Assembly (NCBI GenBank): GCA_965243735.1
Contig: CBDEVZ010000008.1
Location: forward strand, 1,624,302-1,688,301
Reading direction: 5' to 3'
Source: an uncultured Candidatus Binatia bacterium
GTDB lineage: Bacteria; Desulfobacterota; Binatia; Bin18
DNA length: 64,000 nt
Numbering within the stretch: position 1 is the first letter of the stretch; each line of letters opens with the position of its first letter. This document shows, in pieces, positions 11,286-58,847 of the stretch. The translations under genes and the position numbers were made by a program. The notes below the pieces were generated by a model. The model did not search any database. It saw nothing but the letters and a program-made list of their open reading frames with translations, and was not told the origin of the DNA.

Positions 11286-11508
11286 CCAGAGCTAGGGCGT
11301 TTCACGTTAGGCTGTAGTCATGCCGTTCCGCTCTCGTTCTGCTGGCCGCGATCCGATATCCCTGCTTCGACTTCGCTCCGCTACGCTCAGCACGAACGGG
11401 AGACCGTTAGTCCTGAGCCTGTCCTGAGCCGTGTAGGTCAGGTTAGCCGGAGGCGTAACCTGACATCCCGTACGTGTCGGATTACGCTCCGCTCATCCGA
11501 CCTACTAC
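11286..11508 (+). repeat. MITE-like palindromic repeat (halves A+B) inserted at the 3' end of the preceding gene
   Basis: Half A (11286-11400) matches the reverse complement of 44700-44800. Half B (11428-11508) is near-identical to 54456-54537 and to the reverse complement of 49715-49796. B contains two 9-bp-stem hairpins: GTCAGGTTA-N10-TAACCTGAC and GTCGGATTA-N8-TAATCCGAC. Confidence 0.6.
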
Positions 11509-49693: not shown

Positions 49694-49796
49694 CGGTTCA
49701 CGATAGGCTGTCGTAGGTCGGATTAGCGGAGCGTAATCCGACACGTACGGGATGTCGGCTTACGCCTACGGCTCACCCGACCTACACGGCTACACA
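49694..49796 (-). repeat. MITE-like repeat (half B type with terminal inverted-repeat end), reverse orientation
   Basis: Reverse complement matches 54456-54558, including the terminal GCCCTATCGTGAA(G/C)CG. Confidence 0.5.
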
Positions 49797-51132: not shown

Positions 51133-51981
51133 ATGGCACAGCACATGTTTGGCATGAAGAAATCGTTCATTTCCGAGGTCACTCTTCCGTCGGGCATATC
51201 TGGGCCGGCGTGGTGGTTTGGCTTTCACCGCAACCGTCTGCTGGTGCAGGTCACCGACCGCGGGCTGGCGGTCCCATACACCGAGCGGTTTACCGAGCTG
51301 GGCCTGACCGCCAAGCAGCAGTACTATCTCGGCCGTTACGAGGGACGGCCGTGCTACGCGGTAGACGTGGCGGAAGACACGCCTCCCGGCGGTATGGACT
51401 TCAAGGACTTGCGTCAGGTGTACGGCTCGCTGGAGGAAGACCTGTTCGTCTTGGGCGGCCGGGCGGTCCAGATTGTGGAGTGGGACCGTAACCACCAGTA
51501 CTGCGGCCGGTGCGGCAGCAAGACCTACACCAAGGACAACGAGCGGGCCAAGGCCTGTCACGAGTGCAAGCTGATGAATTTCCCGCGTCTGTCACCCGCA
51601 GTCATCATGGCGGTTGAGAGGGGCGACAAACTGTTGCTGGCCCGCTCGGCGCATTTTCCTACCGGCCTGTACAGCGTCCTGGCCGGTTTTGTCGAACCGG
51701 GCGAGACGATTGAGGAGTGTGTGGTGCGAGAGGTCCGGGAAGAGGTCGGTATTACGGTCGGCAAGGTGCGCTATGTGGCCAGTCAGCCGTGGCCGTTTCC
51801 AAACTCGCTGATGCTGGGCTTTAACGCCGAGTACCTCGACGGAGAGATCAGGCCCGACCCGGTCGAAATTGCCGAGGCCGGCTGGTTCACTGCCGACGCG
51901 CTGCCGTCCATCCCGGGCCGGATAAGCATTGCCCGGCGGCTGATCGACCGCTTTGTGGAAAAGCAGGCGGGCAGAGCCTAG
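51133..51981 (+). CDS. nudC: NAD(+) diphosphatase NudC (Nudix hydrolase with zinc ribbon)
   Basis: CGRCGSK...CHEC zinc ribbon plus Nudix box GFVEPGETIEECVVREVREEVG. ORF 50980.. trimmed to ATG 51133. Confidence 0.8.
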   Translation: MAQHMFGMKKSFISEVTLPSGISGPAWWFGFHRNRLLVQVTDRGLAVPYTERFTELGLTAKQQYYLGRYEGRPCYAVDVAEDTPPGGMDFKDLRQVYGSLEEDLFVLGGRAVQIVEWDRNHQYCGRCGSKTYTKDNERAKACHECKLMNFPRLSPAVIMAVERGDKLLLARSAHFPTGLYSVLAGFVEPGETIEECVVREVREEVGITVGKVRYVASQPWPFPNSLMLGFNAEYLDGEIRPDPVEIAEAGWFTADALPSIPGRISIARRLIDRFVEKQAGRA

Positions 51982-52163
51982 AAAAAGCAGTGCCACCCCA
52001 CGCGAGGTGGCCAGCTTGCCGCAGATCTCGGATCCTTCGGAGATCTTCCAGCACTGATCGGCCTTGACCGAAGATGCGTCCCGGCTACAATCCAATCATG
52101 CGCCCGTCCGGGTGATCGTGAATATACCTTTCCCGAGCAAGAGCAATTAAGGACAGCGATTTC

Positions 52164-53300
52164 ATGTCCACAGAACTCTCTGGCAAAGACCTCCATCTTT
52201 CGAGTCTGGCGATCATGGGGTTTCGGGGGATCGAAGACCTTTCGATCCCCCGTTTAGGCCGCGTGACGCTCTTCGTGGGGAAGAACGGAGTTGGCAAGAC
52301 GACTCTGCTTGAGGCCGTCCGTCTCTATGCTGCGCGCGGGCGTGACTCTCTTTTCGCGGATATATTGCGGAATCGTGAAGAGATGGCTGACACTGTCGAT
52401 GAGGACGGCGACAAAAAGCTCGTACTCAATTGGGAGGCTCTCTTCCATGGTCGGCACGCCTCATCAGATGCTTGTATCTCAATAGGTCCGATTATTGAGA
52501 CAGAACAGCTCTGCATTCGGACCATTCCATTAAGTGAAAAGATCGCTAAGGCATTAGGAAAGCTCACCAGCGGGCATTCCTCAGGCGAGGAGGTGAAGGT
52601 GCTCAGGGTCGAGTTTCACGGTGCGACTCAAGAATATCCGATGTCTGAATCTCCGACCGAGCAAGCATTATTACGTGAGCTGACGAAATTTTTTGATGAT
52701 GAACCCCAGCTGCTATCTGAAATCCTATGCGAGTCTCTGGGACCGAGTTTGCTGACTGATATGGACATGGCGCGGTTCTGGGATGAGATAGCGCTCACAG
52801 ATGATGAACCCCGGGTCGTGCAGGCTCTGAATCTGATCTTTGGCGATATAGTGGACCGTGTCGCGGTAGTTGGAGATGACAGGAAAAATAGTACTCCTCA
52901 TGGCCGCCGGGCGGTCGTGAAGATCAAAGGGCAAGATCGTCCGGTCCCCCTGAAAAGTCTCGGCGATGGAGCTGTGCGCCTGTTTGGTGTCGCTTTGGCT
53001 CTTGCTAACAGCCGAAATGGTCTCCTGGTTATCGACGAGGCGGAAAACGGACTCCACTATGCGGCGCAGCGCAATTTCTGGAAGATGGTTCTGAGAGCGG
53101 CGCACGAGAACAACGCGCAGGTTTTCGCAACGACACATAGCTGGGACTGTGTGGCAGGCTTTGCTCAAGCGGCAACGGATGTAGATGAGGTGGAAGGCGT
53201 TCTTGTTCGCCTTGAGAGGGACGGCAGCCGCATCCGTGCAGTAGAATACTCCGAGGACGATCTCAAAATCGCAGCCGAGCAAGGCATTGAGGTCAGATAG
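52164..53300 (+). CDS. AAA/ABC-like ATPase (AAA_21/OLD-like; RloA/AbiLi-like) of a two-gene putative defence module
   Basis: Walker A (GKNGVGKTT) at the N-terminus. C-terminal LLVIDEAENGLH (Walker B/D-loop) and FATTHS (H-loop). Lower GC than flanks. Confidence 0.7.
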   Translation: MSTELSGKDLHLSSLAIMGFRGIEDLSIPRLGRVTLFVGKNGVGKTTLLEAVRLYAARGRDSLFADILRNREEMADTVDEDGDKKLVLNWEALFHGRHASSDACISIGPIIETEQLCIRTIPLSEKIAKALGKLTSGHSSGEEVKVLRVEFHGATQEYPMSESPTEQALLRELTKFFDDEPQLLSEILCESLGPSLLTDMDMARFWDEIALTDDEPRVVQALNLIFGDIVDRVAVVGDDRKNSTPHGRRAVVKIKGQDRPVPLKSLGDGAVRLFGVALALANSRNGLLVIDEAENGLHYAAQRNFWKMVLRAAHENNAQVFATTHSWDCVAGFAQAATDVDEVEGVLVRLERDGSRIRAVEYSEDDLKIAAEQGIEVR

Positions 53301-53303
53301 TCT

Positions 53304-53921
53304 GTGGCTCAGCCTACTTCGTCACCCTCTCGTATCCTTTTAGTCGAAGGACAGAATGACAAGCACGTCGTTCTGCATCTCCGTGCCAGGCGTCCATTGA
53401 CATTGGACTTTGACGTTCGGGACACGGGAGGTATTGACCAACTGCTCCCGTCTATCGGTCCTGAAATCAAGGTTTCAGGGCGACAGGTCGTCGGTATTCT
53501 CGTGGATGCAGACGACAATATGACAGCGCGTTGGGACGCCGTCACAGATCGACTCTCGAAGGCCGGTATCTCGCCACCGCCGTCTCCCGATTCAGCCGGG
53601 ACGATCATAGACGGAACACCTCGCATTGGTATCTGGCTAATGCCGAATAATGAAGCGTCCGGCGAGCTTGAGGATTTTGTCGTGCGAATGATCCCTGGCG
53701 GGGATCAGGTTTGGCCGTTATCCCGGCGCTACATAGAAGAGATTCCAGAAACGGAGAGAAAGTTTTCAGAGAAGAAAAAGCTGAGGGCGCAGCTCTACGC
53801 CTGGCTGGCGGCTAGGGAGGACCCCAGGCAGATGGGGTTAGCCATTCGCGCGGGCGATTTGGAAGTCGATAGCGAACTCAGCCAGAAATTTATTGCCTGG
53901 CTTACGAAACTGTTCGGATAA
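53304..53921 (+). CDS. TOPRIM-like DUF4435/RloB-family protein, partner of the upstream ATPase
   Basis: LLVEGQND (conserved Glu) and ILVDADDN (DxD) TOPRIM motifs. Starts 4 nt after the ATPase stop. Confidence 0.55.
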   Translation: MAQPTSSPSRILLVEGQNDKHVVLHLRARRPLTLDFDVRDTGGIDQLLPSIGPEIKVSGRQVVGILVDADDNMTARWDAVTDRLSKAGISPPPSPDSAGTIIDGTPRIGIWLMPNNEASGELEDFVVRMIPGGDQVWPLSRRYIEEIPETERKFSEKKKLRAQLYAWLAAREDPRQMGLAIRAGDLEVDSELSQKFIAWLTKLFG

Positions 53922-54213
53922 CTTCGGAGAGAATGCACTCACGCGGCTGGTGTCCGGAAATCTTGTCCTGCCGGCTCCGGCAATCAGCGGATACGCAGGC
54001 GGGTAGAAAGACACAGCATGGTTGTCTCGTCGGGTGACTTCTCTGGAGCCATGAACTTGCCATTCGCCAGAATCCTCCTCTAACACAGGCCGGCCCGTCA
54101 CATCGCAAACCCAGAGCCAAGCCGGCGTCTGAGATCGTTTGCGCTGCGGTTTGAGACAGCCGCTCTGGATCCAGGGTCCAGAAGATGAGGGCTGACGTAT
54201 CCAGCACGATCAT
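53902..54213 (-). pseudogene. Degraded PIN-domain (VapC-like) toxin
   Basis: N-terminus MIVLDTSALIF... is PIN-like and its ATG overlaps the antitoxin stop (TAATG). The rest of the ORF has no PIN features, and its 3' end overlaps the + strand TOPRIM gene. Confidence 0.3.
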
Positions 54214-54443
54214 TACAGCTCGCCCCATTCGTCGGTGGTCGGTGCATTGACATCTTCACGGTAGATGACTTTGCCCTGCATGGTGCCGAACACCTCTTTC
54301 ACTGTCTTTTTTTGGGCAATAGGCTGAATGCGTAAAACGGGGCGATTATGATCTGTGACGATTAATTCTTCGCCGGTTTCTTCAATATCGCGAAAGATTC
54401 GCAGCATGTTGGCTTTCAATTTACTCTTGGAGATGGACGGCAT
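54213..54443 (-). CDS. Type II antitoxin, Phd/YefM (VapB-like) family
   Basis: 76 aa. ISKSKLKANMLRIFRDIEETGEELIVTDHNRPVLRIQP matches the Phd/YefM fold pattern. Coupled to the downstream PIN remnant. Confidence 0.6.
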   Translation of the reverse strand: MPSISKSKLKANMLRIFRDIEETGEELIVTDHNRPVLRIQPIAQKKTVKEVFGTMQGKVIYREDVNAPTTDEWGEL

Positions 54444-54455
54444 TATCTTCTCCTA

Positions 54456-54558
54456 GCCGTGTAGGTCAGGTTAGCCGGAGGCGTAACCTGACATCCCGTA
54501 CGTGTCGGATTACGCTCCGCTAATCCGACCTACTACGCCCTATCGTGAAGCGCACTAG
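54456..54558 (+). repeat. MITE-like repeat (half B + terminal inverted repeat)
   Basis: 54456-54537 matches 11428-11508 with 1 mismatch. Terminal GCCCTATCGTGAAGCGC is the inverted counterpart of GCGTTTCACGTTAGGC at 11288. Confidence 0.55.
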
Positions 54559-56000
54559 GCGGCCACATGCACCGGCGGGCGCTTGTCGGCCCACGGCTTT
54601 GCCTCTTCCAGCTGAGCGGCCAGGCGCAGCAAGCCTGCCTCGTCCCCGAAACGACCGACAAACTGCACCCCAACCGGCAGGCCATCGGCGCTCCAGTGCA
54701 GGGGCAGCGAGATGGCCGGCTGACCGGTCGTATTGAACAGCGGCGTAAAGGGCACGTAGGAGAAGACCTGGCGGGTCCACTCCATCGCCGTCATACCGGC
54801 CCGGTTCTGGTTGACTTCTCCGTGCGGCGCGGGCGGTTTGGCAATGGTCGGCGTCACAAAGACATCGATGTCTTCAAAGAAGCGACCGACGATGCGGGAC
54901 AGGCGACCACCGTGGTCCATGGATTTCAGCAGATCAACCGCGCTGTATTTCTTGCCGTCTTCCCAGACGGCCAGCGTCACGGCTTCCAGTGTATCCGGGC
55001 TCGGCGAACGCCCCATTTCCGTAGCCAGACCTTCAATCGCCATGGTATTATACGCGGCCCAGATCACGTGAACGTTCTCAAGGAACTCCTCCCAGTCATA
55101 CTCCGGCCGGCCTTCATGCACCGTATGGCCGAGTTCCTCCAGTAGCCGCACGGTGTCATGGACCGCTCGCTCGCATTCCGGGTCAACCTTCTCGCCCGAA
55201 GCGGGTGCTGTGGTCCAGGCGATGCGCAGTGTCCCCGGCGCCGCACCTGGTTCCTCACGGTAGGGACGGGCTGGCGGGACCGGCAGGCCGGGCGCACCGG
55301 CATCGGCGCCGGCCACGATGTCGAGCAGCGTCGCGGAGTCGCGGACACTGCGCGAGACAACAAACTCACACGCCAGGCCGCACAGCGGATCAGAAAAGTC
55401 GGGTCCGGTCGGCACCCGGTCGCGCGAGGGCTTGAGGCCGACCAGACCGTTGCACGAGGCCGGAATACGGATAGAGCCGCCGCCGTCGTTGGCATGGGCA
55501 ACCGGCACGATACCGGCGGCGACCGACGCGGCGGACCCGCCGCTCGAACCGCCGGCGCTATGACCGGCCTTCCACGGGTTGTGGACCGGCCCGAACAGAA
55601 CGGTCTCGGTCGTCGGGTTATAGCCCAGCTCTGGGGTTTGGGTCGTGCCGGTCAGCACAAACCCGGCACGCCGAAAGCGCGCCATGAGTTCGGAATCCTC
55701 AGGGGCGACATAGCCCTGGGCCAGCCGTGAGCCCATGTCGAGGCGGACGCCCTTGGCGTGCAGAACCAGTTCTTTGATCAGAAACGGCACGCCGCTGAAG
55801 GGACCGTGCGGCAAGCCTGCCTGAATCTCGGCCCGTGCCTGGTCTGCCAGCACCTGGAGTACGGCGTTCAGTTGCGGGTTGAGCTTTTCGATGGCCTGGA
55901 CTGCGGTGGCCACCAGTTCTTCGGCGCTGACTTCGTTGCGCGCTACCAGCTCAGCCAGTCCGAGTCCGTCATACTTTGCATATTCACTCAGAGACAGCAT
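54555..56000 (-). CDS. Amidase (amidase-signature family)
   Basis: [14 protein letters not shown] amidase signature; 481 aa. Confidence 0.85.
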
Positions 56001-57570: not shown

Positions 57571-57764
57571 TCTCCCCCGTCTCACTCTCAAGCGTATGGC
57601 TCGATAGGTCGGGCCTGCGGTTGAATACCACAGTGGCGTGAGACGGAGGAGTAGCTACCCCCGTCGCCGCGAATAGACCGCACAATCTCAGCCATACGCT
57701 GTGAGTGGGACACGGCCCGGCAACTCTCACCCGTCGCGGCCGTGTCCTGCCACAGGAGGCCGCT

Positions 57765-58847
57765 ATGAAGGTGGTTGCGTTCGTGCTCGTGTTCCTTTGT
57801 CCGTCCTTGTCGTTTTGCTCCTCCGCTCATGCCTGGGTCCAGCTTGGCAACTGGGTGGTTCCCGCGAAGGAACTGACCGTGGTCATCAGCCGGTTTTGCC
57901 TGGACTGGCCGACGGGCTGGCAGCTCTCCACCGGCGACCCATGTCTTCGGTATACGGACGATGAGTGGAGGTCGGCCATCAGCAGCGCGGGCCACGAATG
58001 GAATGACGTCGGGAGTAGTTTCACCTTCCATTTCAGAATGGCGCGCGGCGAGGATCATCCCTGTCAACGCTCGGGCGAGGTGTTCGTGATTTTAGCGTTG
58101 CCTCACCAAGCGTGTCCGGGGGATTCGCCGATGGGGAGCGCGGCTGGGAAGGCCGTGTTTACGGGGTCCGCAAGTCCCTCCCCGCGCATTTATATCAACG
58201 CGCACTACCTCAACGCGTACTACACGATTGGTACGTCCTGGATGAGTCTGCGACGGGTCATCCTGCATGAACTCGGGCATGTGCTGGGGCTCGGGCATCC
58301 CCCCGCTCATGTCCAAGCCGTCATGGTGCCGGGTTCCGAATGGCTCCGCTTACAGCCCGACGACATAGCCGGCATTCTGGCGCTCTATCCGCCCGAGCCC
58401 GCCCATACGATTGTGGTGATAGAAAATCCGCTCTTCGAGTCGGCCCAGAGCGGGATCAGTGTGATTTCTGGGTGGGTGTGTGACGCGGAATCCCTCCGCC
58501 TCTTCATCACGCCTGCGGGGAATTGGTACGAGCATCTGGTTGTCACCGGCATTCCCTACGGCGGAGATCGGGCCGACACCGAGAGTCACTGCGGGGACCG
58601 CGACAACGGCTTCGGGCTGCTCTTCAACTGGAACACGCTCGGGGACGGCGAGTACTATGTGATGGTGGAAACCGATGACGGCCGCTTCAGTTGGGCTGCC
58701 GTGACCGTCACCACACTCGGGGAGGAATTCCGACGCGGACTGGAGGGGACATGGGAGGTAGACGGCTTTCCCGACCCGAACAGCTCCGTCACGATTGAGT
58801 GGTCCGAGGCGCTACAAAACTTCGTGATTGTGGAGCATAATCCTTAG
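57765..58847 (+). CDS. Secreted matrixin-like (M10) zinc metalloprotease with a single C-terminal copy of the novel CTD (58419-58844)
   Basis: RBS AGGAGG then ATG 57765. Signal peptide MKVVAFVLVFLCPSLSFCSSAHA. HELGHVLGLGHP followed by Met-turn AVMVP. C-terminus ...SGISVISGWVC...CGDRDNGFGLLFNWNTLGDGE...VTTLGEEFRRG...ALQNFVIVE. Confidence 0.8.
   Translation: MKVVAFVLVFLCPSLSFCSSAHAWVQLGNWVVPAKELTVVISRFCLDWPTGWQLSTGDPCLRYTDDEWRSAISSAGHEWNDVGSSFTFHFRMARGEDHPCQRSGEVFVILALPHQACPGDSPMGSAAGKAVFTGSASPSPRIYINAHYLNAYYTIGTSWMSLRRVILHELGHVLGLGHPPAHVQAVMVPGSEWLRLQPDDIAGILALYPPEPAHTIVVIENPLFESAQSGISVISGWVCDAESLRLFITPAGNWYEHLVVTGIPYGGDRADTESHCGDRDNGFGLLFNWNTLGDGEYYVMVETDDGRFSWAAVTVTTLGEEFRRGLEGTWEVDGFPDPNSSVTIEWSEALQNFVIVEHNP

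Follow-up and report, generated by a model that had tools for sequence, protein, structure and literature searches.

A two-gene ABC ATPase and DUF3226 locus of an uncultured Candidatus Binatia bacterium: a candidate split OLD-like module beside a decayed toxin-antitoxin pair

Introduction

Here we analyse a short AT-rich islet in a 64,000-nucleotide stretch of DNA (the window) from contig CBDEVZ010000008.1 of an uncultured Candidatus Binatia bacterium. The islet carries a gene for an ABC ATPase and, on the same strand, a gene for a small Toprim-type protein of the Pfam family DUF3226, followed on the opposite strand by the remains of a toxin-antitoxin (TA) pair. Judged by its profile matches, the gene pair is a member of PDC-M38, a catalogued but uncharacterised candidate system. 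The islet contains the following genes:

52164-53300, plus strand: ATPase open reading frame (ORF), 378 amino acids (aa), ATG start
53304-53921, plus strand: DUF3226 ORF, 205 aa, GTG start
54213-54443, minus strand: antitoxin ORF, 76 aa; Phd/YefM family, vapB-like (Pfam PhdYeFM_antitox, PF02604), intact, with its partner toxin gone

Modules combining an ABC ATPase with a Toprim protein, such as OLD, Gabija, PARIS and AbiL, constitute a major theme of bacterial immunity. A full-text literature search by name returned no mention of DUF3226 or PDC-M38, and no literature was thus found under the name of this branch. The PDC systems of the PADLOC collection are untested phage defence candidates, predicted from their embedding in BREX, DISARM or type I restriction-modification (RM) systems (Payne et al. 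2024 preprint, 10.1101/2024.01.29.577857). An earlier sequence-only reading of the window had described an ABC/RecF-like ATPase linked to a small Toprim-like protein, as in OLD-like and AbiL modules, and in this assignment of class, which also takes in PARIS, it was correct. The hidden Markov model and PADLOC searches that it had proposed gave DUF3226, PDC-M38A/B and AAA_15/AAA_21, and no PIN match. Identical-sequence records for the two window proteins were not found, and their context was drawn from relatives.

Results

The ATPase and DUF3226 genes are separated by an intergenic gap of 3 nt, one less than the sequence-only reading had counted; the four ORFs and all the motifs that it had quoted were found in the sequence and its translations. 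The ATPase falls in the AAA_15/AAA_21 class of Pfam, of ABC/SMC-Rad50 type, and its best PADLOC match is PDC-M38A (PDLC04611, E 1.1e-84; residues 12-378 on positions 2-383 of a 383-position model). The second match is AbiLi (PDLC02336, E 2.3e-50; residues 13-378 on positions 3-340 of 340), followed by weaker, partial matches to AriA, MAD3, HEC-01A (5e-17) and GajA. The quoted motifs lie at aa 39-47 (GKNGVGKTT), aa 287-298 (LLVIDEAENGLH) and aa 321-326 (FATTHS), and the Walker A lysine K45, signature residues S265 and G267, Walker B residues D291 and E292 and the H-loop histidine H325 do not vary among 65 homologues. The catalytic motifs have column entropies of 0.2-0.7 bits, whereas residues 101-180 have 1.9-2.8 bits, delimiting a hypervariable insert (approximately aa 100-180) between Walker A and the signature motif. 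ATPase inserts of this kind have been proposed to set trigger specificity in PARIS and HEC systems.

The second protein matches DUF3226 (PF11536) with E 1.4e-49 and a score of 169.1 bits, where the cutoff is 27 (residues 10-204 on positions 2-207 of a 208-position model), and PDC-M38B of PADLOC (PDLC04624) with E 2.5e-39. Both window genes thus match PDC-M38 over their full length and are adjacent and co-oriented, showing no difference from the catalogued system at the level tested. Pfam and PADLOC models for RloB, AbiLii, DUF4435 and AriB gave no match to the second protein, nor did any NCBIfam model. The RloA/RloB or DUF4435 label of the sequence-only reading is therefore wrong for the effector; the ATPase does match the AbiLi/RloA type. 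Conservation was assessed in 69 diverse DUF3226 relatives, 34-55% identical to the query, every one of which (69/69) matches PDC-M38B. Nineteen of these also match the Pfam model OLD-like_TOPRIM and 21 match HEC-01B, with scattered matches to AriB (4/69, E 0.002), DUF4435 (2/69, E 0.064) and AbiLii/RloB-type models (1/69, E 1.4e-3) and a few to mad4 and GajA.

The effector fold was modelled with AlphaFold from 63 homologues (pLDDT, the predicted local distance difference test, 80; pTM, the predicted template modelling score, 0.68) and searched against solved structures. The model shows a predicted Toprim fold with an adjoining helical domain, and its only high-probability Foldseek match is the C-terminal region of Xanthomonas campestris OLD (6njv, probability 0.99, TM 0.47). 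A PDB sequence search with the protein returned a spurious titin match only. The best PDB profile match, which is not significant (E 0.24), is AriB, with the LLVEGxxD stretch containing E15 aligned to E26, the catalytic glutamate of AriB. The Pyrococcus horikoshii protein PH0156 (PDB 2p62, function unknown), which is 12% identical to the effector, was missed by the PDB profile search. Predicted structure and sequence comparison together make the identification of DUF3226 as an OLD-like Toprim protein, at the level of fold and motif, well supported.

The quoted effector motifs map to aa 15-19 (EGQND) and aa 68-72 (DADDN). None of the 69 relatives deviates at E15, D68, E123, G109, W111 or W199, and at position 19 all have either D or E. 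Position 70 varies, with N in 40 of them and D in 29; in the window protein the stretch reads D68-A-D70. The candidate active-site residues are E15, D19, D68, D70 and E123. The spacing of E15, D19, D68 and E123 (+4, +53, +55) resembles that of E400, E404, D455 and E508 in BpOLD (+4, +55, +53), which there act as ligands of metals A and B. Because a Toprim-plus-helical fold and invariant acidic residues occur together, DUF3226 would be a metal-dependent, two-metal nuclease; because of the frequent Asn at the second DxD position, a difference from OLD, its chemistry may differ from that of OLD proteins.

Comparison with characterised systems places the pair near several of them. Like PARIS, the OLD "class 4", it comprises two genes, encoding an ABC ATPase (AriA in PARIS) and a separate Toprim effector (AriB), and the variability of its ATPase insert parallels that of the trigger-binding pores of AriA. 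Unlike PARIS, its effector is a DUF3226 rather than a DUF4435 protein, some 100 aa shorter than AriB, its 378-aa ATPase is smaller than the 55-kDa AriA, and no copy carried by a phage or satellite was found. With AbiL and RloAB it shares the full-length ATPase match given above, and AbiLii has itself been predicted to be an OLD-like Toprim protein, but the window effector matches neither AbiLii nor RloB. The OLD proteins of class 1 (P2 Old, TsOLD) and class 2 (GajA, BpOLD) differ in having ATPase and Toprim on one polypeptide; classes 1-3 are defined by such a fusion, and in the window, as in 80 of 80 related loci, a stop codon separates the two ORFs. Gabija further differs by its UvrD-like partner GajB, which the window pair lacks. 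HEC-01, an Hma-embedded pair of ABC ATPase and TOPRIM protein, has the same architecture, and some DUF3226 relatives adjoin Hma genes; the window effector does not match HEC-01B.

These comparisons bear on the probable target. The pair might be a split OLD/Gabija-type DNA nickase or exonuclease acting directly on phage DNA, instead of a released tRNA nuclease of the PARIS type. The fold match favours OLD, while the split architecture and the N-terminal motif, with its correspondence to AriB E26, resemble PARIS. No equivalent of BpOLD K562 could be assigned; as judged from sequence only, 67 of 69 relatives have K or R at position 161. Sequence alone does not reveal the substrate. We regard direct action on phage DNA as possible, if rather doubtful.

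The DUF3226 family comprises 2505 cluster representatives at E<=1e-3 in a library of 1.84 billion proteins. A scan of species-representative genomes gave 80 loci at 49-68% identity, nearly all in metagenome-assembled genomes (MAGs) and distributed over many phyla, including Chloroflexota, Latescibacterota, Binatia, Nitrospirales, Acidobacteriota, Spirochaetia and Gammaproteobacteria, among others. In all 80 an ATPase homologue ends just upstream of the DUF3226 gene, on the same strand and as a separate ORF, and an ATPase gene likewise stands directly upstream in two plasmid copies with inspected annotation and in five contigs (L001, L002, L003, L085 and L086) sharing with the window the order thiolase, NudC, ATPase, DUF3226, ..., amidase, MFS, on which the vapBC comparison below is based. 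The closest relatives beyond this syntenic lineage (L005-L084) come, for example, from Latescibacterota, Ca. Poriferihabitaceae, Ca. Entotheonella, Caldilineaceae and Binatia, and the presence of relatives at 49-68% identity in MAGs of different phyla suggests wide horizontal spread inside a shared habitat.

Immediate neighbours, inspected at 70 of the 80 loci, are a mix of housekeeping enzymes and defence genes, the latter including HmaB/HmaC, MAD3/MAD8, type IIG RM/DrmMI, HEPN_Swt1, Pycsar-type TIR, NYN and Fic. In four Chloroflexota loci (L017, L027, L038 and L055) a Phd-type antitoxin and a PIN toxin lie approximately 250-1600 nt downstream of the DUF3226 gene; these TA pairs are distantly related (about 30-35% identity), and association with a TA module recurs in unrelated genomes. 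Distant DUF3226 copies were found on nine plasmids. Two of these homologues are 20-29% identical: the pair is the sole cargo of a ColE1-like mobilizable Salmonella plasmid of 3793 bp (L088, NZ_AP026957.1), and on an Acinetobacter plasmid (L087, NZ_CP038011.1) it is convergent to a BrnT/BrnA TA pair, with its ATPase annotated as two fragments.

In composition the islet stands apart from its surroundings, as the sequence-only reading had noted. Over 52034-54453 its GC content is 0.540, while the whole window averages 0.643; none of 1135 equal-length windows outside the islet is as GC-poor (minimum 0.592). At third codon positions the genes of the islet have a GC content of 0.57-0.58, and the NudC, amidase and thiolase genes that flank them one of 0.75-0.82. 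The AT-richness is therefore real, extreme for the window and not due to chance. A horizontal origin of the pair, which the sequence-only reading had also proposed, is supported by this foreign composition and by the sequence comparisons. Neither direct repeats nor an integrase flank the islet, where only REP-like elements were found, and an Rfam scan of 51800-54800, including the spacer at 53922-54123, gave no credible match. Two features adjoin the genes:

52064-52091, plus strand: sigma-70-like promoter candidate, TTGACC-16-TACAAT, about 70 nt 5' of the ATPase start codon
54454-54552, no strand assigned: REP-like intergenic repeat of 99 nt at the right edge of the islet; a boundary marker outside the module

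The promoter candidate matches 10 of 12 consensus positions, which is weak evidence alone, as the region holds two such sites against 1.4 expected by chance. A GC-rich hairpin lies at 51992-52011, just 3' of the NudC stop codon; because its T-run is confined to the minus strand, the transcripts expected to end there are antisense ones crossing the pair, not that of NudC. The REP-like element (approximately 99 nt) has three copies in the window (11427-11508, 49694-49792 and 54454-54552; 91-99% identity) and is also present in L001 and L003. The copies at 49694-49792 and 54454-54552 form an inverted repeat with 91% complementarity that brackets the segment from thiolase through NudC to the islet.

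Comparison of the six syntenic genomes (the window and its five relatives), all of which contain the pair, reveals marked allelic turnover. Between the window and L002, DNA identity is 95-98% in the flanks and 77% in the pair, and synonymous divergence (dS) is 0.05-0.13 for the flanking thiolase, NudC and amidase genes, 0.77 for the ATPase gene and 0.67 for the DUF3226 gene; the pair's dS is thus 5-14 times the flanking one. Between the window and L085, dS is flank-like for the ATPase gene (0.175) and 0.60 for the DUF3226 gene. Sliding identity at 53371-53460 is 51-58% to L085 and L086 and 76% to L002, and at 53551-53634 it is 92% to L085 and 55% to L002. Such conflicting blocks of identity constitute a mosaic, in which the gene junction (approximately 53100-53300) is the best-conserved part of the pair (88-98%) and variability is concentrated in the ATPase insert. 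At the sequence level this pattern indicates that alleles of the pair have been exchanged piecewise by homologous recombination at a fixed chromosomal site, where the module was probably present before the syntenic genomes diverged. Both genes appear functional, because the ratio of nonsynonymous to synonymous divergence (dN/dS) in the pair, 0.22-0.30, denotes purifying selection. One MAG, which bears the label "Desulfurellaceae", encodes an ATPase with 90% identity; this was considered as a case of transfer between phyla and rejected, since its contig has the NudC-to-amidase synteny and hence belongs to the same lineage.

Divergence and distribution also inform a reading of the pair as a housekeeping complex for DNA repair or recombination, after the manner of RecF (an ABC ATPase) and RecR (a Toprim protein) or of Rad50-type complexes. 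The ATPase N-terminus does match the RecF and SMC_N models, its nearest structures include SMC and Rad50 heads next to defence ATPases, and repair proteins can contain Toprim domains. The RecF match, however, is far under the curated cutoff (36 against 172 bits), and a housekeeping role fits poorly with the foreign composition, the dS excess and mosaic alleles, a patchy cross-phylum distribution at 50-68% identity, and the occurrence of the family on small plasmids. We consider it highly unlikely.

Downstream of the pair, the sequence-only reading had recognised a Phd/YefM-type antitoxin next to a truncated PIN partner retaining some 30 PIN-like residues, and this is what was found. The corresponding features are:

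53922-54123, no strand assigned: ancestral non-coding spacer, from the DUF3226 stop codon to the former vapC stop codon, shortened by deletion
53902-54228, minus strand: read-through ORF overlapping the antitoxin stop codon, with MIVLDTSALIFWTLDPERLSQTAAQTISDA directly after MGRAV
54124-54213, minus strand: remnant of vapC (PIN toxin), codons 1-30 of 126 (MIVLDTSALIFWTLDPERLSQTAAQTISDA)

The antitoxin matches PF02604 with E 9.9e-6 and 25.7 bits, under the gathering cutoff of 29.8; it is 96% identical at the aa level to the antitoxin beside an intact PIN toxin in L085, and its dN/dS relative to its relatives is 0.04-0.13. Its stop codon overlaps the PIN start codon (TAATG). A tblastn search with an intact toxin (P0123; the intact relatives are 126-aa PIN toxins) gave 29 identities over the 30 remnant N-terminal codons (97%) and no PIN similarity past codon 30 in any frame, and Pfam gave no PIN domain match at the remnant. 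The minus-strand ORFs that cross 53922-54123 are out-of-frame read-through artefacts, and the overlap of the vapC 3' end with the Toprim gene described by the sequence-only reading corresponds to one of these. A decayed C-terminal PIN segment within 53922-54123, proposed from the resemblance of PPAYPLIAGAGR to DPADRLIAATA, was likewise rejected: tblastn was empty, and in alignment the region corresponds to the non-coding spacer found where vapC is intact. The states of vapBC in the syntenic relatives are:

L003: VapC intact; the contig ends within vapB
L085: intact VapC and VapB
L001: state identical to that of the window
L086: VapB, almost no vapC, and an IS630-family insertion
L002: pair present, no vapBC at all

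The sequence-only reading had explained the truncation by insertion of the pair into a resident vapBC, which would have orphaned the antitoxin, and the presence of just 30 PIN codons beside the pair, with a read-through ORF reaching the 3' end of the DUF3226 gene, does invite that explanation. It fails on comparison with L003 and L085, where an intact 126-aa VapC stands in the same gene order (NudC, ATPase, DUF3226, spacer, VapC, VapB), with 300-415 nt between the convergent stop codons. By the DUF3226 stop codon the window retains approximately 200 nt of this ancestral spacer, which match L003 with 93-98% identity and L085 with about 90% (90-98% taken together), and in the alignment a single deletion, common to the window and L001, accounts for the loss of vapC codons 31-126 and of the stretch of spacer next to them. 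Every syntenic genome has the pair, including L002, which lacks vapBC, and L086, which lost vapC by other breakpoints. Truncation of vapC by the incoming pair is accordingly refuted. As read from these alignments, vapBC neighbours the pair as a separate and older element, and its toxin was lost by a deletion of its own. Because the breakpoints in L086 and L002 differ from those in the window and L001, this sequence comparison shows at least three independent losses of the toxin, with the antitoxin left intact twice and the pair kept every time.

In the two lineages where the orphan antitoxin is intact after independent toxin deletions (window 54213-54443; L086:7985-8215), it may still be under selection, for instance as an anti-addiction or regulatory protein, or may simply not yet have decayed. 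In L086 an IS630-family transposase, with HTH and DDE_3 ORFs, separates the orphan antitoxin from the amidase gene (L086:8305-9256), and this insertion indicates that the intergenic site accumulates rearrangements.

The fate of vapBC is also relevant to whether the pair is itself a selfish stability, addiction or plasmid-exclusion module, in which a toxic nuclease is checked by the ATPase and has no dedicated antiviral role. Such a role would suit the distant homologues on very small mobilizable plasmids, once as sole cargo, and the TA pairs often found beside the pair; PARIS, too, formally behaves as a toxin-antitoxin pair. Yet the pair has been kept stably at one site in six genomes while the adjoining true TA module decays repeatedly, its hypervariable ATPase insert and shuffled alleles better fit selection by a changing external trigger, and the family was found through members embedded in BREX, DISARM or RM systems. 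We therefore judge a purely selfish role of this kind unlikely.

Elsewhere in the window, the ORF listing includes a 380-aa ORF (57705-58847, plus strand) with the sequence HELGHVLGLGH, which resembles the metzincin-type zinc-protease motif HExxHxxGxxH.

Discussion

We interpret the pair as a one-operon, split OLD-like system that is most likely an anti-phage or anti-mobile-element module, and assign this reading a probability of approximately 0.6. Modelled on PARIS, AbiL and OLD/Gabija, its mode of action would have the SMC/Rad50-type ABC ATPase as sensor and regulator. The hypervariable insert would detect an infection cue, and ATP binding or hydrolysis would then release or activate the DUF3226 nuclease, much as AriA releases AriB, which cleaves tRNA-Lys. 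The freed nuclease might cut tRNA or DNA and so halt the infection, perhaps with the loss of the cell. The analysis establishes domain identities, fold and conserved residues, a strict pairing of the genes, foreign composition, purifying selection on both genes and recombinational turnover of alleles at a fixed site; defence role, sensing step, nuclease activity and target are what we infer. In favour of the defence role also speak the accessory, arms-race-like behaviour of the pair, the defence genes among its neighbours in other genomes and the 3.8-kb plasmid on which it is the sole cargo.

Several observations weigh against a defence role. The members of PDC-M38 are experimentally untested candidates, and HEC-01, whose architecture is the closest among those tested, failed to protect E. 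coli against the phages tried. The window pair sits among metabolic genes, not in a defence island; the "mini defence island" of the sequence-only reading was an overstatement for a solo candidate system and a decayed TA pair. Many neighbours of related pairs in other genomes are also housekeeping genes. PARIS and OLD are often phage- or satellite-borne, whereas a search of 50,697 phage genomes gave no DUF3226 homologue. On the protein side, the structure model of the ATPase is of modest confidence (pLDDT 67.6), in more than half of the effector relatives (40 of 69) Asn replaces the second Asp of the canonical DxD, and the proposed correspondence of active-site residues derives from spacing and fold matches.

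A broader proposal, which we put forward tentatively and hold to be somewhat unlikely as a whole, is that DUF3226 pairs form a distinct functional class of split OLD-like immunity with a D-x-N/D variant of the Toprim site, maintained as a long-lived polymorphism in which recombination within the genes, at a single fixed chromosomal site, brings segments of the sensor (the ATPase insert) and of the effector into new combinations. If this were true, natural alleles would directly map the determinants of specificity.

At this locus a PIN toxin has been lost repeatedly and its antitoxin kept, beside a retained candidate defence pair. Taken alone, the locus adds one more example of a candidate that the catalogue already lists. 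Its main value is as a compact target and test case, with a 205-aa effector and three invariant acidic residues, and as a series of natural mosaic alleles at one syntenic site that point to the diversifying parts of the ATPase and the nuclease.

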